Virus record (IMG/VR): IMGVR_UViG_2541047854_000008
DNA: 13,548 bases
Source: a virus
Taxonomy: Duplodnaviria > Heunggongvirae > Uroviricota > Caudoviricetes
Reading direction: 5' to 3' (one strand)
Positions within the stretch are counted from its first letter, which is position 1. Every line of letters starts with the position of its first letter. The notes under the pieces are model-generated. The model was not told the origin of the DNA and did not search any database. It saw only the letters and a program-made list of their open reading frames with translations. Shown here piece after piece: positions 1 to 13,548 of the stretch. Made by a program: the position numbers and the translations under genes.

Positions 1-234
1 CACTGGCACGTGGAGAATAAGCTGCACTGGCGTCTGGACGTGGTAATGAATGAAGACGACTGCAAAATAAGAAGAGGAAATGCAGCAGAATTATTTTCAG
101 GGATACGGCACATCGCTATTAATATTTTGACTAATGATAAGGTATTCAAGGCAGGGTTAAGACGTAAGATGCAAAAAGCAGCCATGGAGAGAAACTATCT
201 GGCGTCAGTCCTTGCGGGGAACGGGCTTTCGTAA
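1..234 (+). mobile_element. 3'-terminal part of an IS transposase gene (ISAs1/H-repeat-like DDE transposase); the rest of the gene and IS lie upstream of the window
   Basis: Frame 1 is open from nt 1 ([43 protein letters not shown]...) to TAA at 232-234. The HWxxENxLHWxLDVxxxED..R..G motif is the conserved C-terminal signature of this transposase class (recalled, not searched). The IS terminal inverted repeat cannot be placed without the other end. Confidence 0.55.
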
Positions 235-567
235 TCTTGCCCTGCCTGCTCACCTCCTCCAGGCACTTCCACTACATGATGACCTGCTCGGTGCCACCGC
301 TCCTTTTCACTATGACGTTAACCTCCCCGTCCCAGGACACCATGCTTTTGTCTACATTCTACGCAAACGGCAACTTTTATAACCAGTGTAAAAATAACGT
401 GCCGCAATAGTCATACCTATTAATGGTAAAAAGCTGTCACAATTCATAAAAAACCTTAATATACGCCACCCTAAACATAACCAGCGTTAATGTAAGGTTT
501 TTGTGTGGACTGGCTTCTTGATGTTTTTGCTACCTGGCTCTACGGCTTAAAAGTAATCGCGATAACG

Positions 568-1173
568 TTAGCGGTCATCATGTTCATCAGCGGGCTGGAC
601 GATTTTTTTATTGATGTCGTCTACTGGGTACGCCGCATTAAACGCAAGTTGAGTGTTTATCGCCGCTATCAGTTCATCCAGCGCGGCTGCTTTGTTCATG
701 GCTTTGATGATATCCCGTTTCAGGAAATCAACATGTCGGTTTTCCAGTTCCGGAAAACGCCGCTGCACCGACAGGGGGATCCCGTCGAGAATACTGGCAA
801 TTTCACCTGCGATCCGCGACAGCACGAAAGTACAGAATGCGGTTTCCACCACTTCAGCGGAGTCTCTGGCATTTTTCAGCTCCTGTGCGTCGGCCTGCGC
901 ACGCGTAAGTCGATGGCGTTCGTACTCAATAGTCCCTGGCTGGAGATCTGTCTCGCTGGCCTGCCGCAGTTCTTCAACTTCCCGGCGCAGCTTTTCGTTC
1001 TCAATTTCAGCATCCCTTTCGGCATACCATCTTATAACGGCGGCAGAGTCATAAAGCACCTCATTACCCTTGCCACCGCCTCGCAGAACGGGCATTCCCT
1101 GTTCCTGCCAGTTCTGAATGGTACGGATACTCGCACCGAAAATGTCAGCCAGCTGCTTTTTGTTGACTTCCAT
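568..1173 (-). CDS. nohD: Terminase small subunit Nu1 homolog (DNA-packaging protein), C-terminally altered
   Basis: The 201-aa translation matches lambda Nu1 essentially residue for residue through aa 169 (MEVNKKQLADIFGASIRTIQNWQEQGMPVLRGGGKGNEVLYDSAAV...KAMNKAAALDELI), then continues with 32 unrelated residues to a TAA. ATG at 1171-1173 is preceded by GGAATGAACA, as in lambda. No large-subunit (A) gene follows. Confidence 0.9.
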   Translation of the reverse strand: MEVNKKQLADIFGASIRTIQNWQEQGMPVLRGGGKGNEVLYDSAAVIRWYAERDAEIENEKLRREVEELRQASETDLQPGTIEYERHRLTRAQADAQELKNARDSAEVVETAFCTFVLSRIAGEIASILDGIPLSVQRRFPELENRHVDFLKRDIIKAMNKAAALDELIAAINTQLAFNAAYPVDDINKKIVQPADEHDDR

Positions 1174-1400
1174 TGTTCATTCCACGGCCAAAAACAGAGA
1201 AAGGAAACGACAGAGGCCCAAAAGCTCGTTTTCAGCACCTGTCGTTTCCTTTCTTTTCAGGGGGTATTTTAAATAAAAACATTAAGTTACGACGAAGAAG
1301 AACGGAAATGCCTTAAACCGGAAAATTTTCATAAATAGCGAAAACCCGCGAGGTCGCCGCCCCGTAACCTGTCGGATCGCCGGAAAGGACCCGCAAAATG
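1174..1400 (-). other. cos site: cosN 12-nt cohesive-end sequence at 1351..1362 (AGGTCGCCGCCC on + strand, GGGCGGCGACCT on - strand), with cosB between cosN and the nohD start and cosQ-side sequence at 1363..~1400
   Basis: The - strand of 1260..1362 reads as the lambda left end (GGGCGGCGACCTCGCGGGTTTTCGCTATTTATGAAAATTTTCCGG...), and the - strand of 1363..1395 matches the lambda right end (...GGGTCCTTTCCGG[C]GATCCGACAGGTTACG). The cosN-to-Nu1 start spacing of about 178 bp is as in lambda. Confidence 0.8.
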
Positions 1401-1561
1401 ATAATAATTATCATCTACATGTCACAACGTGCATCTACGCCATCAAACCACGTCAAATAATCAATTATGACGCAGGTATCGTATTAATTGATCTGCATCA
1501 ACTTAACGTAAAAACAACTTCAGACAATACAAATCAGCGACACTGAATACGGGGCAACCTC

Positions 1562-1756
1562 ATGTCAACTAAGAACAGAACCCGCAGAACAACAACCCGC
1601 AACATCCGCTTTCCTAACCAAATGATTGAACAAATTAACATCGCTCTTGAGCAAAAAGGGTCTGGGAATTTCTCAGCCTGGGTCATTGAAGCCTGCCGTC
1701 GGAGACTAACGTCAGAAAAGAGAGCATATACATCAATCCAGAGTGATGATGAATAA
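1562..1756 (+). CDS. ylcI: DUF3950-family small prophage protein (YlcI-like, 64 aa), lambda right-end ORF
   Basis: ATG at 1562 to TAA at 1754-1756. The translation MSTKNRTRRTTTRNIRFPNQMIEQINIALEQKGSGNFSAWVIEACRRRLTSEKRAYTSI... matches the K-12 DLP12 YlcI sequence and the lambda right-end sequence as I remember them. Confidence 0.8.
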   Translation: MSTKNRTRRTTTRNIRFPNQMIEQINIALEQKGSGNFSAWVIEACRRRLTSEKRAYTSIQSDDE

Positions 1757-2115
1757 ACATCCCGGTTTCTTCCACCATCGCACCGGAAAAGCGACTATGA
1801 GGGTAACCCTGCGTCTGTCAGCACAGTAAAACCCGGTGTGCATCGTTTTTGATTATTCCCGCACACTCACGCAGAAGGAATTCCCCGTCGGGCTACGGTC
1901 ATGGTTAATGCGGGAATACGGCGACGATACAGCGCAGCTAAAAGGGTAATGGACAGAAAGAGCGGTTTATTTCATTCCACAGGATTCTGAGTGCCCCCCT
2001 CCTCCAATAGGCTGAGCATCCACCTATATAGTTTTAATTTTCATCAATCCATTTAACTATCGTTTAATTGTTGTCACATAGGATTCTGCCGTTTTTAACA
2101 ATGCAGGATAATAAG

Positions 2116-2409
2116 ATGAAAAAAATGTTGTTTTCTGCCGCTCTGGCAATGCTTATTACAGGATGTGCTCAACAGACGTTTACTGTTGGAAACAAACCGA
2201 CAGCAGTAACACCAAAGGAAACCATCACCCATCACTTCTTCGTTTCGGGAATTGGACAGGAGAAAACTGTTGATGCAGCCAAAATTTGTGGCGGCGCAGA
2301 AAATGTTGTTAAAACAGAAACCCAGCAAACATTCGTAAATGGATTGCTCGGTTTTATTACTTTAGGCATTTATACTCCGCTGGAAGCGCGTGTGTATTGC
2401 TCACAATAA
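2116..2409 (+). CDS. borD: Bor lipoprotein (serum-resistance lipoprotein homolog), 97 aa with lipobox LITGC
   Basis: The ORF track starts at a TTG (2068). The Bor-like protein begins at ATG 2116 (MKKMLFSAALAMLITGCAQQTFTV...), preceded by AGGA 8 nt upstream, with a signal peptide and lipobox cysteine. Near-identical to lambda Bor and convergent with Rz as in lambda. Confidence 0.9.
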   Translation: MKKMLFSAALAMLITGCAQQTFTVGNKPTAVTPKETITHHFFVSGIGQEKTVDAAKICGGAENVVKTETQQTFVNGLLGFITLGIYTPLEARVYCSQ

Positions 2410-2440
2410 TTGCATGAGTTGCCCATCGATATGGGCAGCT

Positions 2441-2902
2441 CTATCTGCACTGCTCATTAATATACTTCTGGGTTCCTTCCAGTTGTTTTTGCATAGTGAT
2501 CAGCCTCTCTCTGAGGGTGAAATAATCCCGTTCAGCGGTGTCTGCCAGTCGGGGGGAGGCTGCATTATCCACGCCGGAGGCGGTGGTGGCTTCACGCACT
2601 GACTGACAGACTGCTTTGATGTGCAACCGACGACGACCAGCGGCAACATCATCACGCAGAGCATCATTTTCAGCTTTCGCATTAGCTAACTCCTTCGTGT
2701 ATTTTTCATCCAGTGCAGCAACATCACGCTGGCGCATCTGCATGTCAGTAATTGCCGCGTTCGCCAGCTTCAGTTCTCTGGCATTTTTGTCGCGCTGGGC
2801 TTTGTAGGTAATGGCGTTATCACGGTAATGATTAACAGCCCATGACAGGCAGACGATGATGCAGATAACCAGAGCGGAGATAATCGCGGTTACTCTGTTC
2901 AT
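2441..2902 (-). CDS. rzpD: Rz inner-membrane spanin (i-spanin), 153 aa
   Basis: The translation from ATG 2900-2902 ([64 protein letters not shown]...) is near-identical to lambda Rz. The ATG overlaps the rrrD TGA (ATGA). The track's GTG start at 2914 is judged to be an upstream extension. Confidence 0.9.
2500..2682 (-). CDS. rzoD: Rz1 outer-membrane lipoprotein spanin (o-spanin), 60 aa, embedded in Rz in the +1 frame
   Basis: The translation [60 protein letters not shown] has a lipobox (VVGC) and proline-rich stretch and is near-identical to lambda Rz1. It lies wholly inside the Rz ORF. Confidence 0.85.
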
Positions 2903-3396
2903 TGCTGACCCCACAAACAGATTTCACGCTCAATCTCACGACGAGTCATGAGACCTTTCCATTGCTTACCGCCAGCATATGTCCAGCGACGTAGCTGATC
3001 ACATGCGCCTTTGATATCGCCCTGGTTTATTTTGCGAAGAAGCGTCGATGTTCTGAAATTGCCAGCGCCCACGTTGTAAACGAACGAGTAAAGAGCGCCG
3101 CGCGTTGTTTCCGGTATATCAACTTTTATGTACGGGTTAATTTGTCTGGCGACCGTGGCAAGGTCTTTATTCAGGAGGGCTTTGCATTCTGCTTTGGTAT
3201 ACGTTTTACCGAGCATGATGTCTTTTCCTGTATGCCCGTGACATACAGTCCATACACCAACAATATCTTTGTATGGTATGTAGCTGACACCTTCCAGACC
3301 ATCGTTACCACTTGGGCCAGTGATTAACACTGATGCTATAGCAATTGCTCCGCCACCAATAGCAGCAGCAACGGCTTTTCGTAATGATGGAGGCAT
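2899..3396 (-). CDS. rrrD: Phage lysozyme (endolysin, T4-lysozyme-like GH24) with N-terminal signal-anchor-release (SAR) segment, 165 aa
   Basis: The translation [75 protein letters not shown]... has a Gly/Ala-rich weakly hydrophobic N-terminus (SAR) followed by a lysozyme catalytic region, matching K-12 RrrD and phage-21 R-type endolysin. RBS GAGGTG upstream; the ATG overlaps the essD stop. Confidence 0.9.
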
Positions 3397-3611
3397 TATT
3401 CACCTCTCGCAGCCTTGCGCTTATCTTCTTTAATCTTGAAATAAAGGTTTGTCAGGTACGTCAGCAGGCCAAATACCAGGCTACCCAGCACACCTATTGC
3501 TGCCCACTGTGAGGGCGTGACTTTATCGAGCAGCTGTAAAAACCAGTAACCGGCACTACCTGCTGAGGTGCCATAGGCGACACCCGTTGTTAACTTATCC
3601 ATGGATTTCAT
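3396..3611 (-). CDS. essD: Phage 21 S-type pinholin with dual-start motif MKSM, 71 aa
   Basis: ATG at 3609-3611 is preceded by GAGGTGGGG. The protein [71 protein letters not shown] has two transmembrane segments and a charged C-terminus. Met1 and Met4 fit the holin/antiholin dual start. The track's TTG at 3656 is judged an extension. Confidence 0.85.
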
Positions 3612-3656
3612 AACCCCACCTCGCAGACAAAGCGGGTGTAAATTGAGGGAATACAA

Positions 3657-4199
3657 CGTATCGCAAAAAAGCAGAAACGTAACAGACTCGGAGTCAGTGA
3701 ATAACTCAGGTATTGAGTTATCAGCTAATATCGAGACTCAAAAAATGGAAAAACCAGCTCGACGGCGGGTTTAAGCTGTGTGACGAAGTAACCACTCTTA
3801 ACAGCATAACCAATTTTTTACGTACGTAAACCACTGAATGATATTTATGAGAATGCTACCGAGTGTTCAAAACACCACCACAAATATATAAGAAAACCTC
3901 AACAAATAACCAATAAATAATTTCCGGCGTTATTTTTAGTTGATTTAAATTAAACCACCGAATTATAGAACCCCCATAAATAACAGCCATTAATATAAAT
4001 TAGCTAATAGGTTTATTTTTGTTCAAATAAGAGCCATAAATAGGTTTCGATAGAAAAAGTTCAGATAAAAATAGAGATCTACTTCACAAATTAAATGAGA
4101 AACTAAAACTTACATCTTGAAATAATCACATTGATTAGATGAATATTTATCGCGCAGTGACATCATTTTTTAATAATAGTTCAAAAAAAAGGGCTCACG
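3657..4199 (+). promoter_or_regulatory. Long AT-rich upstream region of the porin gene, presumed nmpC promoter/regulatory region; exact promoter not assigned
   Basis: About 540 bp without a credible ORF, visibly AT-rich, directly upstream of the nmpC ATG. Contains the short direct repeat CCATAAATA at 3974-3982 and 4034-4042. Porin genes typically have extended upstream regulatory regions. Confidence 0.3.
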
Positions 4200-5282
4200 A
4201 TGAAAAAATTAACAGTGGCAATTTCTGCTGTAGCTGCATCAGTACTGATGGCGATGTCTGCTCAGGCAGCTGAAATTTATAATAAAGACAGTAACAAGCT
4301 GGATCTGTACGGGAAAGTTAATGCCAAGCACTACTTTTCCTCTAACGATGCAGATGATGGTGATACTACTTATGCCCGTCTTGGCTTCAAAGGTGAAACC
4401 CAAATCAACGATCAACTGACTGGTTTCGGTCAGTGGGAATATGAATTCAAAGGCAACCGCGCTGAATCTCAAGGTTCCTCCAAAGACAAAACCCGTCTTG
4501 CATTTGCAGGCCTGAAATTCGGTGACTACGGCTCAATCGATTACGGCCGTAACTACGGTGTAGCATACGACATCGGTGCGTGGACTGACGTTCTGCCAGA
4601 ATTCGGTGGCGATACCTGGACCCAAACAGATGTGTTCATGACTGGTCGCACCACTGGTGTTGCAACCTATCGTAACAACGACTTCTTTGGTCTGGTCGAT
4701 GGCCTGAACTTTGCTGCTCAGTATCAGGGTAAAAATGACCGCACTGACGTAACTGAAGCCAATGGTGATGGTTTCGGTTTCTCCACTACTTATGAGTATG
4801 AAGGATTCGGCGTGGGTGCAACCTATGCTAAATCAGATCGCACTGACGGTCAGGTCGCCTATGGTAAGAGCAAATTCAATGCCTCCGGCAAAAATGCGGA
4901 AGTATGGGCTGCAGGCCTGAAATATGATGCGAACAATATCTATCTGGCTACCACATATTCTGAAACTCAGAATATGACCGTTTTTGGTAATAACCATATT
5001 GCAAACAAAGCACAAAACTTTGAAGCAGTAGCACAATATCAGTTTGACTTCGGTCTGCGACCATCTGTTGCTTACCTTCAGTCAAAAGGTAAAGACCTTG
5101 GTGTTCATGGTGACCGAGACTTAGTCAAGTATGTCGATGTCGGTGCTACTTACTACTTTAATAAAAACATGTCCACTTTTGTTGATTACAAAATCAACTT
5201 AATTGACGATAGTAAGTTTACCAAAACAGCTGGTATTGATACCGACGACATCGTCGCTGTAGGTCTGGTGTATCAGTTCTAA
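4200..5282 (+). CDS. nmpC: Outer-membrane general porin of the OmpC/OmpF/PhoE family (NmpC/OmpD-like), 360 aa, intact
   Basis: Signal peptide [23 protein letters not shown] followed by AEIYNKD..., and it ends in the porin C-terminal motif ...VGLVYQF. Full length with no interruption. Oriented opposite to the flanking late genes. Confidence 0.9.
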
Positions 5283-6890: not shown

Positions 6891-7345
6891 TACGCCTCCT
6901 GCTTGTCGCGCAGCAGCTGGAACTCGCAGCTCTGCGGAATAGTCAGGTGGCAGCCAATATTCATCGCCCAGGCTTCAACCTTACACAGGAAGACATACAT
7001 CTCTCCGGTATCAAGATTGGAGGTATGACGTAATGACTGAATGGTGGTGATTTCACCGGTTACGACATCAACCAGTTCTTTGGTTTCATAACCGAGATAA
7101 GTGTGTTTGAGAGCATCTTTTACCCAAGCTGGAGTGGCGAACGTTTTACCCCTGCTGATGAGGTATTCACTGATTTCGCTGTACCACATGTGGCTGAGTG
7201 CATTCTGGGAAAGACTGCGTCTCTCGCGCCACGGTTTAAGCACCATGCGAAAGCATTTGCCGTCCTCCAGATAAGGCTGGATCTGCCGACCGATAGCGGT
7301 GAAGTTACCGCGATGCAATTTGATACCATCTTGTGGGAGGTTCAC
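6890..7345 (-). CDS. ybcN: NinB/Orf-family recombination protein (YbcN-like), 151 aa, GTG start
   Basis: The translation [62 protein letters not shown]... matches K-12 YbcN as recalled. GTG at 7343-7345 is preceded by GGAGGTGAAGC. Confidence 0.85.
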
Positions 7346-7443
7346 GCTTCACCTCCGCAGAGATCAAACGCTGGATGCAAAATATCGCAGGTGCATTTCT
7401 GCATCTGTGAATGGAGAAGAGAGGTTGGATTGTATGTGCGCAT
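7342..7443 (-). CDS. Possible small ORF (33 aa) translationally coupled to ybcN; may be the K-12 ylcH equivalent. Speculative
   Basis: ATG at 7441-7443 to TGA at 7342-7344, giving [33 protein letters not shown]. The stop overlaps the ybcN GTG (GTGA). No recognisable RBS or homolog; the call rests on position only. Confidence 0.25.
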
Positions 7444-7465
7444 AAACGTCCCCGTTTAGCGCAGA

Positions 7466-7496
7466 AGTCACCGGAGGAGTTCAAACTCCGGTGACT
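7466..7496 (-). terminator. Perfect 11-bp stem-loop (AGTCACCGGAG - 9-nt loop - CTCCGGTGACT) downstream of the HNH-motif gene; possible terminator or regulatory hairpin
   Basis: Inverted repeat read directly from the sequence. It lies between the stop of the 260-aa gene (7538) and the nin-gene block. There is no clear U-tract on the - strand and TTAATTAT follows on the + strand, so terminator function is uncertain. Confidence 0.3.
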
Positions 7497-7537
7497 TAAT
7501 TATGGCAAGTTGATTGTTGAAAATCAATTTAGTGGAT

Positions 7538-8320
7538 TTAGGCGCAATACAAAGGATCATTAGCAGCTCTAATACCGCCCTGAATCGCAAGCCCTGTATG
7601 GCAATTTGACATTGAGCATGATTGCCATCTGTGCAAGGGACCTCCATTAATCGAAACTTCCAGCAGATCTTTATCTCCTTTCATCCTGACCCCTTCATAC
7701 AACATATCAAGACGCTCAACAATCAATCCTGTTGGAGGTTCCATTTTTAGAACGAGGGCAAACTCTCCTGGCCCACGTCGTATTGTTATACGCGGGCCGG
7801 TACACTCCACATCCCAATTGTCTGATTTAGCTTTCCATTCATTTTCATCTATCAGTAAAGTCTCCTTACCAATAGAATTACAGAAAATTCCTGATAAAAG
7901 CATCGGTCCATGTGGTATGGGTGAAGGTTTCACAGAAAGAATGGGTTGTTCGTTGACTACAATCAAATTTTGACAGTTATGAAACGTCACTCCTGCAAAT
8001 TTTACTGTTATAGGCTCATTATGAAAATCAAACATTTCATTTGCAAAACCAGCCTGTAAGCACTTGGGATTTCTGTCAGCTATTTCCACTGTCTGTGCTG
8101 AAAGTCTACCACGAGCTCTTTTTTGATTGCATTGGGAGCAAAGAAGTGTCATTCCATTCGGATCATGTATTTTGGCATCAACGAAGTCAGGTTTAAAATG
8201 CTCATAATCATAAAATCCAAATCCACAAATTACACAGCCAAAGCCGCACCTTTGCCTTATCTGACGTTTTATTGTCTCAGGTATTCTTCTTGAGAGCCCG
8301 TGTTTATTAATATTGTCCAT
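7538..8320 (-). CDS. Hypothetical 260-aa protein with an N-terminal zinc-finger HNH (beta-beta-alpha-Me) nuclease motif and an uncharacterised ~190-aa C-terminal domain
   Basis: ATG at 8318-8320 with an in-frame stop 5 codons upstream and only a weak SD. Residues 25-65 read RCGFGCVICGFGFYDYEHFKPDFVDAKIHDPNGMTLLCSQCNQ, i.e. C-x3-C-x2-C ... EH ... N ... C-x2-C-N, the spacing typical of HNH nucleases. The C-terminal region is not recognised. The gene is AT-rich relative to the lambda-like core. Confidence 0.6.
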   Translation of the reverse strand: MDNINKHGLSRRIPETIKRQIRQRCGFGCVICGFGFYDYEHFKPDFVDAKIHDPNGMTLLCSQCNQKRARGRLSAQTVEIADRNPKCLQAGFANEMFDFHNEPITVKFAGVTFHNCQNLIVVNEQPILSVKPSPIPHGPMLLSGIFCNSIGKETLLIDENEWKAKSDNWDVECTGPRITIRRGPGEFALVLKMEPPTGLIVERLDMLYEGVRMKGDKDLLEVSINGGPLHRWQSCSMSNCHTGLAIQGGIRAANDPLYCA

Positions 8321-8450
8321 ATGGTTAGTACGCTATAAGTTTGTTTCTATAATTTTACCACAATAGATAAGTTTGTATCAGAAATCGCTATATGGAGTGA
8401 GCGGAATATTTATATTATTCATGCAATTGCTCTCCCGTACGCAGCCCGCA

Positions 8451-8476
8451 CTTCCGTCATCGCAGAATGACGGAAG
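8451..8476 (-). promoter_or_regulatory. Perfect 10-bp inverted repeat (CTTCCGTCAT-cgcaga-ATGACGGAAG) in the intergenic region between the 107-aa and 260-aa genes; candidate operator or attenuator hairpin
   Basis: Read directly from the sequence. It lies 19 nt past the stop of the 107-aa ORF and upstream of an AT-rich stretch that contains an extended -10-like TGGTAAAAT (- strand, about 8350-8360). No U-tract follows on either strand. Confidence 0.3.
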
Positions 8477-8494
8477 CCTTACTAACTAGCGCCT

Positions 8495-8818
8495 TTATTG
8501 AAACAGATTCTGAGGTAAATGCGGCAATACTTGACTCCACTTATCATCCTGCCACGGCTGAAGTTTTACATGTGCCGTTTCTCGGGCGAGGATTGCTCGC
8601 GCTCTGTTGAGTCTCTGGGGATATTCTTGCTCGATGGAAGTGAAGTGACCAGCCTCACCATGCTCCGCATCCTGAAGAAGATGAGTAACGTTCTGGTAGG
8701 CAATTAACATCACATTCCCTGCTCGCCATAACCAGGCGAGTGTGCAAAGTTCGTTATCAGTGAATTGTTTTGTGATTGGGAATTGTTGAACTGCTAGAAC
8801 GGGAACGCCAGCATCCAT
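8495..8818 (-). CDS. Hypothetical protein, 107 aa, no recognised family; upstream partner of the HNH-motif gene
   Basis: ATG at 8816-8818 with an in-frame TAG 3 codons upstream and AGGGA 8 nt upstream. Translation MDAGVPVLAVQQFPITKQFTDNELCTLAWLWRAGNVMLIAYQNVTHLLQDAEHGEAGHFTSIEQEYPQRLNRARAILARETAHVKLQPWQDDKWSQVLPHLPQNLFQ. Coding status rests on ORF length and position only. Confidence 0.45.
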   Translation of the reverse strand: MDAGVPVLAVQQFPITKQFTDNELCTLAWLWRAGNVMLIAYQNVTHLLQDAEHGEAGHFTSIEQEYPQRLNRARAILARETAHVKLQPWQDDKWSQVLPHLPQNLFQ

Positions 8819-8929
8819 TGGCAGTCCCTATAGTAAAACCATAGCTCAGGACGCTTCGTTCAGGATAGATACTTTTATTGTACTTACCTAACTTTCTTAC
8901 TATAGCACGGTTGGAAAAGTGATTATTAC

Positions 8930-10456
8930 TCAAAAATAAACCTCACCATCAACCATATATTTGAGAGTACTTATCGCCTGCTGGGCGGATATTGTTTTCA
9001 TTAAAGGATAGTGTTTAAAAACAATGCCATTCATAAAATAGATATCACAGGTTTTATTATCTGTATTGATTATGATTTTTTCGAATGTTTTATAGGCAAG
9101 TGTACGACATAGCTCTCGCCCATTTTTACTGGTTAAGTCAATAGCATGAAAATCACCAAGTGAACTCACCGCTTTACTCTTCAAAGTTTTTAATGATACC
9201 GAAGCCCTTCGTAATTCTTTATCTAATACTCTGATTTTTTCTGCTATAGCGGTAACTTCAGGCGCAACAGATAATGCAGCAATTAAATTATTAATTTTCA
9301 TCTGGAGCTCAATAATTTTCAACTCTAAAGTTTCATTAGCATCTTTCTTGTTTTCAACTGGTTGGATTTTACTACAATTAAAAAGCAACTCATTAATGAT
9401 ATTATAATCAACCAAATCTCTCTTTATTGATGGCCTGTCACATCGATGCAGTCTTCTCATCGGACAAACATAATAGCCATGCAAACTTCCAGATACCGCA
9501 TGAACAATCATGGTATTACCACAAGCCTCGCACTTCATAACTGTTCGAAGTAGATTTATCAACATAGGATTTTTGCTACTATTGCTAATACCAAAAGGTG
9601 CCAACCGAATTTCCTGCACAGCGTAAAACAAATCATCTGATATGACTCTGGGATAATAGCCAGCGATTTCACTTATTCCTTTACCTCTTGCACGATATGA
9701 AGGTACGCATATACCTATCAGAGCTTTATTCGCTAATAATTTTTCAATTACAGAAGGCCCCCATGCACTTTCTTTGCCTGAGAAATTTTTTACAGCATGA
9801 TCATTTAAATACTTGGCTATTGCATTCAATGATCGCCTTTCCATCCTGAGTTTAAAAATTAGCTCAATCGTTTTCACCCTGTCGGGGTCTGGAATAAAAG
9901 CTGTTCTTTTGTCATCCAATGAGAGCCATCTCGGACAAGACGCCGTCATAATCGTGCCTGACTCCAGTGCATCCTGCCGTTTTTTCTTCCATGATAATTT
10001 AACCCGACTTGACTTTATCTCGCTTTCTTCATTTGCCCTTTGTGCTATAAGTATGGCTTTTATTAATGAATATGGATCATTCAAAGAGTCAATATTATAG
10101 ACTGTATTATCGCAAAGAGTTATAACATCAATACCGTGATTCAAAATCAATTTCAGACGCTCAATCGCTTCACCGACTTTTTCTCTTGAAAGTCTGTCCA
10201 AACTTTCAACTAACAATGTAGTTCCTGGCAATATATAACCATGCTCTATAGCATCTAAAAATTCCGAAAAAGCTCCTGATTGTGCATGCTTTCCTTTGAA
10301 TGCACTTAATCCTAAATCTTCATATGTTATGGTATCAAGATAATAATCACTATTTACCTTTAACCATTCAGCAATAAGTCTTCTCTGTCGGTTCAATGAG
10401 TCGCCAGACATCTGACCTGGTGATGAAAATCGCATATATGCTATGGCTTTTTTCAT
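8930..10456 (-). CDS. ybcK: Large serine recombinase (resolvase/invertase-type N-terminal catalytic domain plus recombinase and zinc-ribbon domains), 508 aa
   Basis: ATG at 10454-10456. The N-terminus MKKAIAYMRFSSPGQMSGDSLNRQRRLIAEW... carries the serine-recombinase catalytic motif (YxRxSS). The C-terminal part has a Cys cluster (CEACGN...CPMRRLHRC) and a coiled-coil-like segment. Matches K-12 YbcK in length and sequence as recalled. AT-rich. Confidence 0.9.
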   Translation of the reverse strand: MKKAIAYMRFSSPGQMSGDSLNRQRRLIAEWLKVNSDYYLDTITYEDLGLSAFKGKHAQSGAFSEFLDAIEHGYILPGTTLLVESLDRLSREKVGEAIERLKLILNHGIDVITLCDNTVYNIDSLNDPYSLIKAILIAQRANEESEIKSSRVKLSWKKKRQDALESGTIMTASCPRWLSLDDKRTAFIPDPDRVKTIELIFKLRMERRSLNAIAKYLNDHAVKNFSGKESAWGPSVIEKLLANKALIGICVPSYRARGKGISEIAGYYPRVISDDLFYAVQEIRLAPFGISNSSKNPMLINLLRTVMKCEACGNTMIVHAVSGSLHGYYVCPMRRLHRCDRPSIKRDLVDYNIINELLFNCSKIQPVENKKDANETLELKIIELQMKINNLIAALSVAPEVTAIAEKIRVLDKELRRASVSLKTLKSKAVSSLGDFHAIDLTSKNGRELCRTLAYKTFEKIIINTDNKTCDIYFMNGIVFKHYPLMKTISAQQAISTLKYMVDGEVYF

Positions 10457-10638
10457 GGTGACACCTGCTAACGTATGCTTTTATAAACCTTAGTGGTGGG
10501 ATATAACTTTTGTTTAATTTTTATTTAAAAAGACAATTAAGGTCACATTATCTTGAATATACAACAATAATCGTATTGCAATTTTCTCACGCCATAATCT
10601 TGAAAGCACAAAAGAATACATAAAAAATAAAGACATTA

Positions 10639-10680
10639 ACAAAAAGCATAAAACGAGGCTCATATAAATATAAGAGCCTC
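10639..10680 (-). terminator. Intrinsic terminator downstream of emrE
   Basis: Hairpin GAGGCTC...GAGCCTC (10654-10679) is followed on the - strand by GTTTTATGCTTTTT, about 32 nt after the emrE stop. Confidence 0.5.
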
Positions 10681-10711
10681 CATATTTTAGTCGTTTAAAA
10701 ACAAATTATTT

Positions 10712-11044
10712 TTAATGTGGTGTGCTTCGTGACAATAAATTAATAACCAACACACCGGCACAAATCAACATCATGCCTATAATGGCTGGCAGGTCCAGCC
10801 GTTGGCCGAAAAATCCCCATGACAGTAAGCTAATCAGGACAATACCGACTCCTGACCAGATAGCATAAGCAATCCCTGTAGGAATATAAGCCAGCGTCTG
10901 AGCTAATAACCAGAATGATGCACAATAACAAATAATTGTACCAACAGATGGCCATAACCGTGTAAAACCTTCTGAAAACTTCATTAAGGTTGTACCAATG
11001 ACCTCTGCAAGTATTGCACCACCAAGATAAATATAAGGGTTCAT
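10712..11044 (-). CDS. emrE: Small multidrug resistance (SMR) efflux transporter EmrE, 110 aa
   Basis: ATG at 11042-11044. The translation MNPYIYLGGAILAEVIGTTLMKFSEGFTRLWPSVGTIICYCASFWLLAQTLAYIPTGIAYAIWSGVGIVLISLLSWGFFGQRLDLPAIIGMMLICAGVL..NLLSRSTPH is recognisably EmrE (four TM helices, conserved Glu14). The track's TTG at 11098 is an extension. Confidence 0.95.
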   Translation of the reverse strand: MNPYIYLGGAILAEVIGTTLMKFSEGFTRLWPSVGTIICYCASFWLLAQTLAYIPTGIAYAIWSGVGIVLISLLSWGFFGQRLDLPAIIGMMLICAGVLVINLLSRSTPH

Positions 11045-11060
11045 AGCATATTCTTTCCTG

Positions 11061-11093
11061 TTCAAACTGGAGAGAATTGTACTACAGTTTGAA
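11061..11093 (-). promoter_or_regulatory. 9-bp perfect inverted repeat (TTCAAACTG - 15 nt - CAGTTTGAA) immediately upstream of emrE; possible operator or transcript-processing hairpin
   Basis: Read directly from the sequence, between the ren stop (11112) and the emrE start (11044). Function unknown. Confidence 0.2.
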
Positions 11094-11111
11094 ATCAACT
11101 CACCTGTTTCA

Positions 11112-11414
11112 TCATTGTGTACCCATTGATGTTCTTTTATATACCCTCAATACGCGTTTCATCGCGGCACTCTGGCGACACTCCTTAAAAATCAGATTCG
11201 TGCTCACCTTTCCTTCCCGTTCTTCTCTGGTAGCGAACCGGTAATACACCGTTCGCCAGACCTTACCATCAACGACCAGGATTCCTGCCCGCGCCATTTT
11301 AGCCGCAGCCTGATTTATGCTGGTTACGGTTGCGCCTGTTACCGCGGCAACGTCCTGTGCACAGAAGCTCTTATGCGTCCCCAGGTAATGAATAATTGCC
11401 TCTTTGCCCGTCAT
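11112..11414 (-). CDS. renD: Ren protein homolog (lambda Ren, protects against Rex exclusion), 100 aa
   Basis: The translation MTGKEAIIHYLGTHKSFCAQDVAAVTGATVTSINQAAAKMARAGILVVDGKVWRTVYYRFATREEREGKVSTNLIFKECRQSAAMKRVL... is recognisably lambda Ren. The ATG overlaps the P stop (ATGA), as in lambda. Confidence 0.85.
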   Translation of the reverse strand: MTGKEAIIHYLGTHKSFCAQDVAAVTGATVTSINQAAAKMARAGILVVDGKVWRTVYYRFATREEREGKVSTNLIFKECRQSAAMKRVLRVYKRTSMGTQ

Positions 11415-12112: not shown

Positions 12113-12288
12113 AGCTCCACCCCGTAAATCCAGTCAGTGTTCGTCAGGTCGAGTTTTGGTTTGCCGGCTATCACGCCAGCCTGTTGCTTGTTTCGGTTGA
12201 TTTCGAGCTGGGTCCACTTGTCGCGGAGTTTGGCCGGACTTAGCACGTTACAGGCAACACGTAAAGATCCAACCAAGCCAAAATCTCC
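12109..12288 (-). pseudogene. O: 3'-terminal remnant of replication initiator gene O (only the last several tens of codons); no start codon, so the ori-containing part of O is absent
   Basis: The - strand frame ending in TGA at 12109-12111 encodes ...AGVIAGKPKLDLTNTDWIYGVEL, which matches my recollection of the lambda O C-terminus, and has the lambda-like O/P ATGA overlap. The frame is closed by an in-frame stop at 12289-12291 and there is no N-terminal part. The exact junction with int-upstream sequence is not determined. Confidence 0.45.
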
Positions 12289-12384: not shown

Positions 12385-13548
12385 ATGTCACTCTTCCGCA
12401 GAAATGAAATATGGTATGCCTCGTATTCGCTCCCGGGCGGGAAACGAATTAAGGAATCTCTTGGCACAAAGGACAAGCGGCAAGCTCAGGAGTTGCACGA
12501 CAAGCGAAAAGCAGAACTCTGGCGAGTAGAAAAGCTAGGGGATTTACCTGATGTCACTTTTGAAGAGGCCTGCCTAAGATGGCTTGAGGAAAAAGCTGAT
12601 AAAAAATCTCTCGATTCAGATAAAAGCCGGATTGAGTTCTGGCTTGAACATTTTGAGGGTATAAGGCTTAAAGATATCTCGGAGGCAAAGATTTACTCTG
12701 CTGTAAGCAGAATGCATAACAGAAAGACGAAAGAAATATGGAAACAGAAAGTTCAGGCCGCCATCAGGAAAGGTAAAGAACCGCCTGTTTATGAACCAAA
12801 GCCAGTATCAACTCAGACAAAGGCAAAGCATCTTGCCATGATAAAGGCCATTCTCCGTGCTGCAGAACGCGACTGGAAGTGGCTGGAAAAAGCGCCTGTC
12901 ATCAAGATACCAGCGGTCAGAAACAAGCGAGTCAGATGGCTGGAAAAGGAGGAAGCAAAACGCCTTATTGATGAGTGCCCCGAACCACTGAAATCTGTCG
13001 TCAAGTTTGCGCTGGCAACTGGTCTGAGAAAGTCGAACATCATAAATCTGGAATGGCAACAAATCGACATGCAGCGACGAGTTGCCTGGGTGAATCCAGA
13101 AGAGAGCAAATCAAACCGCGCCATTGGTGTGGCGCTGAACGATACCGCCTGTAAAGTGTTGCGTGATCAAATAGGCAAGCATCACAAATGGGTGTTTGTA
13201 CATACCAAGGCGGCTAAGCGAGCAGATGGAACATCAACGCCTGCGGTCAGGAAGATGCGCATCGACAGCAAGACATCATGGCTATCAGCTTGTCGTCGTG
13301 CAGGAATTGAAGATTTCCGTTTCCATGACCTCAGACACACCTGGGCAAGCTGGCTGATTCAGTCAGGCGTCCCATTATCAGTGCTTCAGGAAATGGGCGG
13401 ATGGGAGTCCATAGAAATGGTTCGTAGGTATGCTCACCTTGCGCCTAATCATTTGACAGAGCATGCGAGGAAAATAGACGACATTTTTGGTGATAATGTC
13501 CCAAATATGTCCCACTCTGGAATTATGGAGGATATAAAGAAGGCGTAA
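12385..13548 (+). CDS. intD: Tyrosine site-specific integrase (phage integrase family), 387 aa
   Basis: ATG at 12385 preceded by GAGGAAAG. The C-terminal catalytic region has the R...HxxR...Y signature ([15 protein letters not shown]...VRRYAHL). Length and sequence match K-12 IntD as recalled. The stop codon is the last 3 nt of the window, so the attachment site or tRNA is outside the window. Confidence 0.9.

Follow-up and report, generated by a model that had tools for sequence, protein, structure and literature searches.

The 508-aa protein encoded at positions 8930..10456 (minus strand) of the window, i.e. of the whole 13,548-nucleotide stretch of viral DNA analysed in this work (IMG/VR record IMGVR_UViG_2541047854_000008), has the true architecture of a large serine recombinase (LSR), and its gene is an accessory gene, not part of the phage backbone. 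The feature is the known Escherichia coli K-12 gene ybcK, and in this respect our finding restates an existing annotation. The explanation we favour, with moderate confidence, is that ybcK is an orphan accessory LSR, neither the integrase of the phage that carries it nor the vehicle of the genes around it.

The window corresponds to a lambdoid prophage of the DLP12 type, which is defective and located at argU. The genome of E. coli B-JRPT-4119 matches it over its entire length at 100% identity, with 1,017 bp of a degraded replication-gene region absent from the window, and in this identical genome the segment 8930..10456 is annotated as "ybcK: recombinase family protein". The minus-strand order, read from the intD end, is intD, P, ren, emrE, ylcJ, ybcK, a P22AR_C gene, an ORF of 260 aa and ylcH, beyond which follow ybcN, ninE, ybcO, rusA, ylcG, quuD, a porin gene and the lysis genes. 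The features referred to below are:

12385..13548, plus strand: intD, tyrosine integrase, the prophage's own, at the argU att site; tRNA-Arg lies 16 bp past the gene (annotation of the identical genome)
11112-11414, minus strand: ren (window gene order)
11121..11148, no strand assigned: ren-side edge of the variable slot, within the last ~36 nt of ren (alignment and BLAST breakpoints)
10712..11044, minus strand: emrE (Pfam PF00893), always the gene next upstream of ybcK in phages
10457..10711, minus strand: 5' region of ybcK (untranslated leader, ylcJ, emrE hairpin)
10655-10680, minus strand: terminator hairpin of emrE, read from the sequence, of the intrinsic type
10514-10663, minus strand: small ORF ylcJ (annotation)
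8930..10456, minus strand: ybcK coding sequence, 508-aa LSR, ATG start (ORF list and translation)
9974..10447, minus strand: Resolvase-type catalytic domain PF00239, aa 4-161 (Pfam E-value 5e-19)
9605..9886, minus strand: Recombinase domain PF07508, aa 191-284 (Pfam E-value 2e-14)
9386..9553, minus strand: Zn_ribbon_recom domain PF13408, aa 302-357 (Pfam E-value 8e-8), with C309, C312, C331 and C339
8933..9385, minus strand: C-terminal region of YbcK, aa 358-508, with a presumed coiled coil and a family-specific tail (PHROG 2371 matches aa 348-508)
8818..8929, minus strand: 3' flank of ybcK, which travels with the gene in this type
8495..8818, minus strand: P22AR_C gene, 107 aa (Pfam PF10548), whose start coincides with the right-hand end of the ybcK unit
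7538-8320, minus strand: ORF of 260 aa, the second gene past ybcK
7511..7528, no strand assigned: palindrome TTGATTGTTGAAAATCAA / TTGATTnnnnnnAATCAA upstream of ylcH, which forms the edge of the slot towards ylcH in all variants compared (alignment and BLAST breakpoints)

The GC content is 31-40% over 8800-10800 and 47-55% on both sides, in agreement with the AT-rich block in which the initial annotation placed ybcK; the separate tyrosine integrase mentioned there is also real, intD being located at the att end of the prophage, at argU. The statement that ybcK lies far from intD needs qualification, since the two genes are only ~1.9 kb apart in this deleted prophage, against ~10 kb in the intact phage Perceval. 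A scan of the sequence for consensus promoters and terminators gave counts no higher than the shuffled expectation. In the 3' flank, the first 66 bp are common to O157 and LF82, and K-12 has a diverged version. In the P22AR_C gene that follows, homology with the full-length gene of strain 95-3322 (202 aa) starts at nt 286 of 609, which corresponds to position 8817 of the window, where the 107-aa ORF starts; judged by this alignment, the 107-aa gene is evidently what is left of an antirepressor-like gene of ~200 aa after truncation at the 5' end.

The catalytic motif of YbcK is AYMRFSSPGQ (R9, S11, Q15), followed further on by D87-R88-L-S-R91. Of the attributes by which an LSR is recognized, the motifs Y-x-R-x-S-x-x-x-Q and D-R-x-x-R, the Recombinase domain and a zinc ribbon with four Cys residues are present. 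Across 20 homologues (lowest identity 28%), R9, S11, Q15, D87, R88 and R91 never vary, nor do C309, C312, C331 and C339, and the catalytic residues and the four Cys are likewise invariant among 30 protein alleles from the 80 viral contigs described below. The three Pfam domains and the invariant residues confirm the serine-recombinase N-terminus and the long C-terminus with a Cys cluster reported in the initial annotation, and the conservation suggests that YbcK is catalytically competent. PHROG 95 ("integrase") matches YbcK with an E-value of 6e-120, and PHROG 125 ("DNA invertase") matches its N-terminal part (aa 1-258).

The profile of the YbcK family identified the solved LSR structures of the SPbeta (SprA), A118, phiC31 and TP901-1 integrases (E-values from 1e-17 to 4e-4); this relationship required an alignment profile, as a search of the solved structures with the single YbcK sequence returned zero matches. 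The profile alignments with SprA and A118 cover aa ~360-475 of YbcK, which is the coiled-coil stretch of these two integrases, and end at aa ~472-478; a coiled coil may be presumed in the C-terminal region of YbcK (aa 358-508). SprA/YokA of SPbeta, the A118/LI integrase of Listeria and the integrases of phiC31 and TP901-1 share with YbcK its three domains, the zinc ribbon and the catalytic motif. They nevertheless have low identity to YbcK and differ from it in genomic position, since they adjoin attP and integrate their own phages, whereas ybcK is internal.

The K-12 protein (UniProt P77698, "putative recombinase" of DLP12) is the product of the same gene, with a nucleotide identity of 96.2% and 13 non-synonymous differences from the allele of the window in the pairwise comparison. 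Both copies are placed after emrE-ylcJ; in K-12, however, ybcL-ybcM come after ybcK and ren is broken by IS3, whereas the window has the truncated P22AR_C gene and the 260-aa ORF instead. The copy in phage Perceval is annotated as "Large serine recombinase, YbcK homolog", and the three-domain similarity of YbcK to CisA of Bacillus subtilis was listed in 2019 (PMC6637259). A literature search revealed no functional study of the recombinase activity of YbcK. The sole published phenotype of ybcK is sabinene tolerance (PMC7181518), which does not obviously agree with any recombinase model.

Pairwise comparisons of the ybcK alleles from the window, K-12, LF82 and O157 gave dN/dS values of 0.06-0.08 at dS ~0.13-0.16. 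The 508-aa ORF is intact in 79/80 copies on IMG/VR viral contigs, truncations being occasional, and none of the 37 variable positions among the YbcK proteins of these contigs falls on a catalytic or zinc-binding residue. The low dN/dS and the 79 intact copies indicate that YbcK is maintained by strong purifying selection.

A search of 5426 complete E. coli genomes found ybcK in 1424 (26%), mostly as a single copy and at most in three; the genomic contexts reported here were taken from sampled rows of these 1424. The gene occurs in prophages integrated at argU together with intD (K-12 and the window), at icd (O157 strain 86-24) and at ybhC (strain wlxctx60), and in each of the three cases the prophage has its own tyrosine integrase abutting the host junction. 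It is also carried by the isolated phages Perceval, D2, Lambda_4C10 and PhiR47_2, of which Perceval is a virion-producing prophage of LF82 (PMC9928086). Perceval encodes a tyrosine Int and Xis in addition to YbcK. The 80 IMG/VR viral loci that were kept are all near-identical copies of E. coli prophages, which makes them fit for counts and not a source of new contexts; wherever the contig reaches, the upstream genes are always (P)-ren-emrE-ylcJ, and each module is found in a single orientation. In all the E. coli and viral contexts examined ybcK is internal, located between ren/emrE and the nin genes, and no copy at an unrelated site was seen in the sampled contexts of the 1424 genomes or on the 80 viral contigs. 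The gene of a phage serine integrase would be expected to abut the host junction; ybcK does not, and the junctions are occupied by tyrosine integrases. We considered ybcK as the integrase of its carrier prophage and rejected this possibility on the basis of its internal position and of the tyrosine Int that adjoins the att site.

Downstream of ybcK, a P22AR_C gene most often comes first, and various genes come after it; other prophages have ybcL-ybcM (the K-12 type, 675 genomes), an alpha/beta hydrolase gene (LF82) or almost nothing (O157). The description of ybcK as cargo in the initial annotation is supported by its presence in only 26% of the E. coli genomes and by the occupation of the ren-to-ylcH slot by unrelated genes elsewhere.

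Outside E. coli, the YbcK family is mostly limited to Enterobacterales. A scan of a genome collection for relatives returned only E. coli, one locus from Atlantibacter and one contig from Alkalicoccobacillus; the latter is 253 bp long and 100% identical to ybcK. The Atlantibacter homologue (60% identity) is encoded in a lambdoid prophage, between replication and nin-type genes, and is preceded by a DNA methyltransferase gene and not by emrE. Relatives from Erwinia rhapontici (52% identity) and Yersinia enterocolitica (56% identity) are similar to YbcK over the full length, have ~510 aa and, like YbcK, are found in lambda-like prophages. In contrast to ybcK of E. coli, which is internal (between ren and the nin genes), both come after a gene for tail-fibre assembly, at the edge of the prophage, next to lepA in Erwinia and next to a P2-like prophage in Yersinia. 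From this position, the Erwinia and Yersinia proteins are predicted to be the integrases of their own phages, which suggests that ybcK of E. coli descends from working integrases. Homologues on plasmids of Pantoea and Duffyella are lone genes, and a lone homologue from Citrobacter koseri is found in a conjugative-type region. The Duffyella copy (51% identity) is positioned at a module junction, in a segment of 1,758 bp between two modules that are found apart on other plasmids. A comparison with Erwinia plasmids aimed at delimiting the Duffyella element revealed no clean empty site, these plasmids being rearranged mosaics.

Non-essential cargo is exchanged in a general variable slot, which extends from the 3' end of ren to the palindrome upstream of ylcH. 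On the ren side, BLAST breakpoints fall at position 11148 of the window for loci devoid of ybcK and at 11121 for a chromosomal island that contains emrE. The same two boundaries enclose recombinase-free slots that encode a DUF4041 protein, HEPN proteins and small hypothetical proteins, and another slot of this kind contains a theta-like gene and a full-length antirepressor-like gene. Since these edges are common to cargo without any recombinase, the boundaries belong to the phage itself and not to ybcK. The chromosomal island, located by fliE, has contiguous emrE-ybcL-ybcM without ybcK in 2618 genomes, including LF82; it takes in 9 nt of ren as well as ~160 bp of backbone sequence from ylcH, and is therefore of phage origin itself. 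On the 3' side of ybcK, homology with variants stops at 8921, 8864, 8794, 8645, 8599, 8515, 8502 or 8444, or never, i.e. there are at least nine classes of breakpoints. This scatter fits mosaic recombination and deletion and not the action of a site-specific enzyme. Odd downstream breakpoints were also considered as candidate host junctions and rejected, as one of them turned out to be an IS3 rearrangement and another a deletion remnant.

These data bear directly on the proposal, made in the initial annotation, of a cassette composed of emrE, ybcK and the two-gene insert, for which ybcK would have served as integrase and which it would have delivered into the prophage. The entire interval is AT-rich and accessory, and the linkage of emrE and ybcK is constant in phages, as such a cassette would predict. 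However, emrE occurs in the 2618 genomes of the fliE island without ybcK, and P22AR_C-family genes are also found in slots devoid of ybcK, the copy in the window being an apparent 5'-truncated remnant; hence ybcK is not their vehicle. Moreover, the downstream content varies (ybcL-ybcM, the hydrolase, nothing, or the pair of the window), and the slot edges are those of recombinase-free cargo and lack detectable repeats. Together with the nine or more classes of breakpoints, this leads us to abandon the proposal, which we regard as extremely unlikely. The comparison of genomes with and without the block, which the initial annotation had recommended, thus gave a divided answer: ybcK is not a fixed part of the backbone, but precise boundaries of a whole cassette were not found.

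Some support remains for a smaller unit. When DLP12 of K-12 is compared with the fliE island, the removal of exactly 2,079 bp restores colinearity with the emrE-ybcL intergenic region. This segment extends from just past the emrE stop codon to 305 bp beyond the ybcK stop codon and holds only the emrE terminator, ylcJ and ybcK. Its ends joined as a circle would read ...AATAAAGCAG|TGTTTCTAAACG..., and the K-12 flanks joined without it (the empty site) would read ...TAAAATAATT|AGTTTTTAGATAG... The indel may have been either an insertion or a deletion. Thus, of the separate smaller mobile unit suspected in the initial annotation, a single clean ylcJ-ybcK indel remains; its right edge varies and the supposed cargo is not included. 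TnpX of Tn4451 and TndX of Tn5397 are LSRs that move small elements via a circular intermediate and without long terminal repeats; these elements use many target sites and carry cargo. The likeness of ybcK to them is one of description and not of sequence, and ybcK differs in being found at one locus only. We consider it rather unlikely that ylcJ-ybcK with short flanks forms a minimal self-mobile element that inserts and excises alone, in the manner of an element with a serine transposase. The clean K-12 segment, the recombinase-specific 1,758-bp segment between separable modules in Duffyella and the occurrence of family members as solitary genes in very different contexts are consistent with it. 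On the other hand, copies of a serine transposon would be expected at several unrelated targets, and in the 1424 genomes (sampled contexts) and 80 contigs ybcK of E. coli is confined to the locus after emrE; the right-hand edge falls into the nine or more classes mentioned above, and no terminal repeats, ends conserved in the family or dyads above chance were detected. A related possibility, in our opinion unlikely, is that ylcJ-ybcK (~2.08 kb) is an autonomous single-gene element or an active second site-specific system of lambdoid phages; either would enter or leave the 3' end of emrE precisely and have a share in the turnover of cargo between ren and the nin genes. It would explain the clean indel, the solitary segment at a plasmid junction and the conservation of a gene with no assigned role. 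Genuine mobility as the cause of the clean 2.08-kb indel retains a modest probability.

The searches for recombination sites were likewise negative. Direct and inverted repeats over 7300-11200 amounted to short AT-rich matches at chance level, in accord with the absence of obvious flanking inverted repeats remarked on in the initial annotation. When the edges of the ybcK block were aligned locally with each other, in direct and inverted orientation, the score was below the shuffled mean. The attP/attB pair of a phage serine integrase would be expected to span ~40-50 bp and to have partial dyad symmetry; a search for such dyads, with arms of 22 nt and a core of 2 nt, gave a best value of 15/22 against a shuffled maximum of 13-15, and no conserved flank motif was found among nine members of the YbcK family. 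No inverted variants that would suggest an invertase were seen among the 80 viral loci.

The latter result argues against the idea of an inversion or resolution enzyme, in which YbcK would flip a neighbouring segment of phage DNA or resolve replication multimers. YbcK does belong to the serine recombinase superfamily and its gene sits among recombination genes of the nin region (ybcN, rusA and others). PinE, PinQ and PinR of K-12 cryptic lambdoid prophages share its catalytic superfamily, and the small invertases PinQ and PinR of such prophages are active (PMC12529663). The Pin proteins, however, are enzymes of ~190 aa that contain an HTH and whose targets are inverted sites around tail-fibre segments, whereas YbcK possesses the C-terminal domains of an LSR and has no such sites. 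A small invertase or resolvase would be expected to have ~180-200 aa, a C-terminal HTH and nearby sites, which is at variance with a protein of 508 aa, with the lack of inverted repeats around the neighbouring segments and with the one orientation found in 80 loci, and we regard this function as very unlikely. We are equally sceptical about YbcK as a factor by which the lysogen defends itself against, or excludes, other phages or mobile elements. The same slot holds elsewhere genes for DUF4041, HEPN and similar proteins typical of defence hotspots, and ybcK is retained in cryptic prophages; nonetheless, neither YbcK nor the products of its two downstream neighbours matched any of the 5027 PADLOC models (E-value <= 0.01), there is no consistently linked partner except emrE and ylcJ, and we found no support in the literature. 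Finally, ybcK, a gene with no assigned function, could be drifting in cryptic prophages as a relic without any function, as truncations occur occasionally and its transcription is silenced in K-12 (PMC4150792). The low dN/dS, the 79/80 intact copies, the invariant catalytic residues and the presence of the gene in viable phages make this explanation scarcely credible.

In the favoured interpretation, i.e. that of an orphan accessory LSR, ybcK is an accessory gene of one lambdoid-phage sub-lineage, held at a fixed ren-emrE-ylcJ-ybcK site in the slot where genes are swapped between the replication and nin regions, and co-oriented with the delayed-early rightward operon. Its most likely origin would be an orphaned integrase module: a lineage of E. 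coli phages apparently captured a single-gene unit of ~1.9-2.1 kb, and a phage with such an internalised gene would integrate by other means. A Rho-dependent terminator within the ybcK leader has been documented experimentally in K-12 (PMC4150792). Judging by the orientation of the gene and by this one K-12 study, expression in lysogens is probably kept low by the intrinsic terminator of emrE and the Rho-dependent terminator of the leader, and both could be read through via phage antitermination upon infection or induction. YbcK itself would be expected to recombine two specific sites conservatively, exchanging both DNA strands through a serine-linked (Ser11-DNA) intermediate. We speculate that this could lead to a secondary integration, to the excision of the unit to which ybcK belongs or to some other rearrangement.

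ybcK is thus one of the still-uncharacterised genes of K-12, and yet it encodes a full-length LSR that is kept by selection. If its sites are found, YbcK would be a native serine recombinase of E. coli that might serve genome engineering, and its carriers would provide a rare example of a lambdoid phage with two site-specific systems.

The window matches the locus of E. coli B-JRPT-4119 at 100% identity over all of the match except 1,017 bp of that genome (18252-19268 of the compared locus), which lie in the region of the frameshifted replication gene, DUF4222 and HTH and are absent from the window at 12249-12251, where the two sides of the junction overlap by 3 bp. Either the complete-genome collection does not include the source strain, therefore, or that strain carries an extra deletion. 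A low-coverage contig of 253 bp from the assembly of Alkalicoccobacillus porphyridii (Bacillales) matches the beginning of E. coli ybcK at 100% identity, almost certainly because the assembly is contaminated.

Outside E. coli, YbcK-family recombinases are found in other settings. The 51%-identical homologue from a Duffyella plasmid (5851-7608 of the compared locus) occupies by itself a segment of 1,758 bp where two modules meet. The first module, with AraC and aldo/keto reductase genes, is 96% identical to plasmids of Erwinia, Rahnella and Kosakonia; the second, which encodes an iron ABC transporter, shares ~75% identity with plasmids of Cronobacter. The adjoining segment of chemotaxis genes is permuted with respect to Erwinia pEB102 in another Duffyella plasmid. 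The 49% homologue from Citrobacter koseri lies in a conjugative region, beside a pilV gene of the shufflon type; upstream of the homologue (about 7813-8000 of that locus) the 7-bp unit TTCTTGT is repeated in tandem. Within the ybcK coding sequence itself, the dyad scan identified a near-palindrome (window 10175-10220) in which 15 of the 22 arm positions match, a value at the upper edge of chance in comparison with shuffled sequence; it also appears as a 24-bp self-complementary BLAST match in K-12 and O157.

The genes emrE, ybcL and ybcM occur contiguously, without ybcK, in a chromosomal island adjoining fliE in 2618 of the 5426 genomes; in strains that lack this island an integrase gene abuts fliE instead. 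The island and the two ORFs downstream of ybcK are as follows:

E. coli GPEC617, 2483-4342: fliE-side emrE-ybcL-ybcM island (counterpart for comparison: window 10704-11121)
window 8495-8818: "P22AR C-terminal domain" ORF, 5'-truncated remnant of an antirepressor-like gene
window 7538-8320: 260-aa ORF, member of PHROG 6544 (unknown function)

Because the island retains pieces of phage backbone, namely 9 nt of ren and ~160 bp of the ylcH region, it appears to be an old remnant of the lambdoid slot in which ybcK also lies.

The P22AR_C ORF retains the last ~108 codons of the antirepressor-like gene, which is found full-length (~200 aa) in other prophages. The 260-aa ORF has no match among Pfam or PADLOC models, and its N-terminus exhibits a weak match to an HNH-endonuclease PHROG (E-value 6e-4). 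At the ylcH-side edge of the slot (window 7475-7528), a hairpin rich in GC (GTCACCGGAG...CTCCGGTGAC) precedes the palindrome TTGATTnnnnnnAATCAA, and both are common to all seven slot variants compared; the palindrome is the last shared sequence, and homology among the variants stops directly past it. These elements may represent a nin-region boundary or a recombination-prone sequence, or else a terminator or operator. In other prophages the same ren-ylcH slot is occupied by genes encoding DUF4041, HEPN-domain, TagO-like and YajG-like proteins (locus L009 and search matches H96-H99), which suggests a hotspot for defence or accessory genes in the ren-nin interval of lambdoid prophages.
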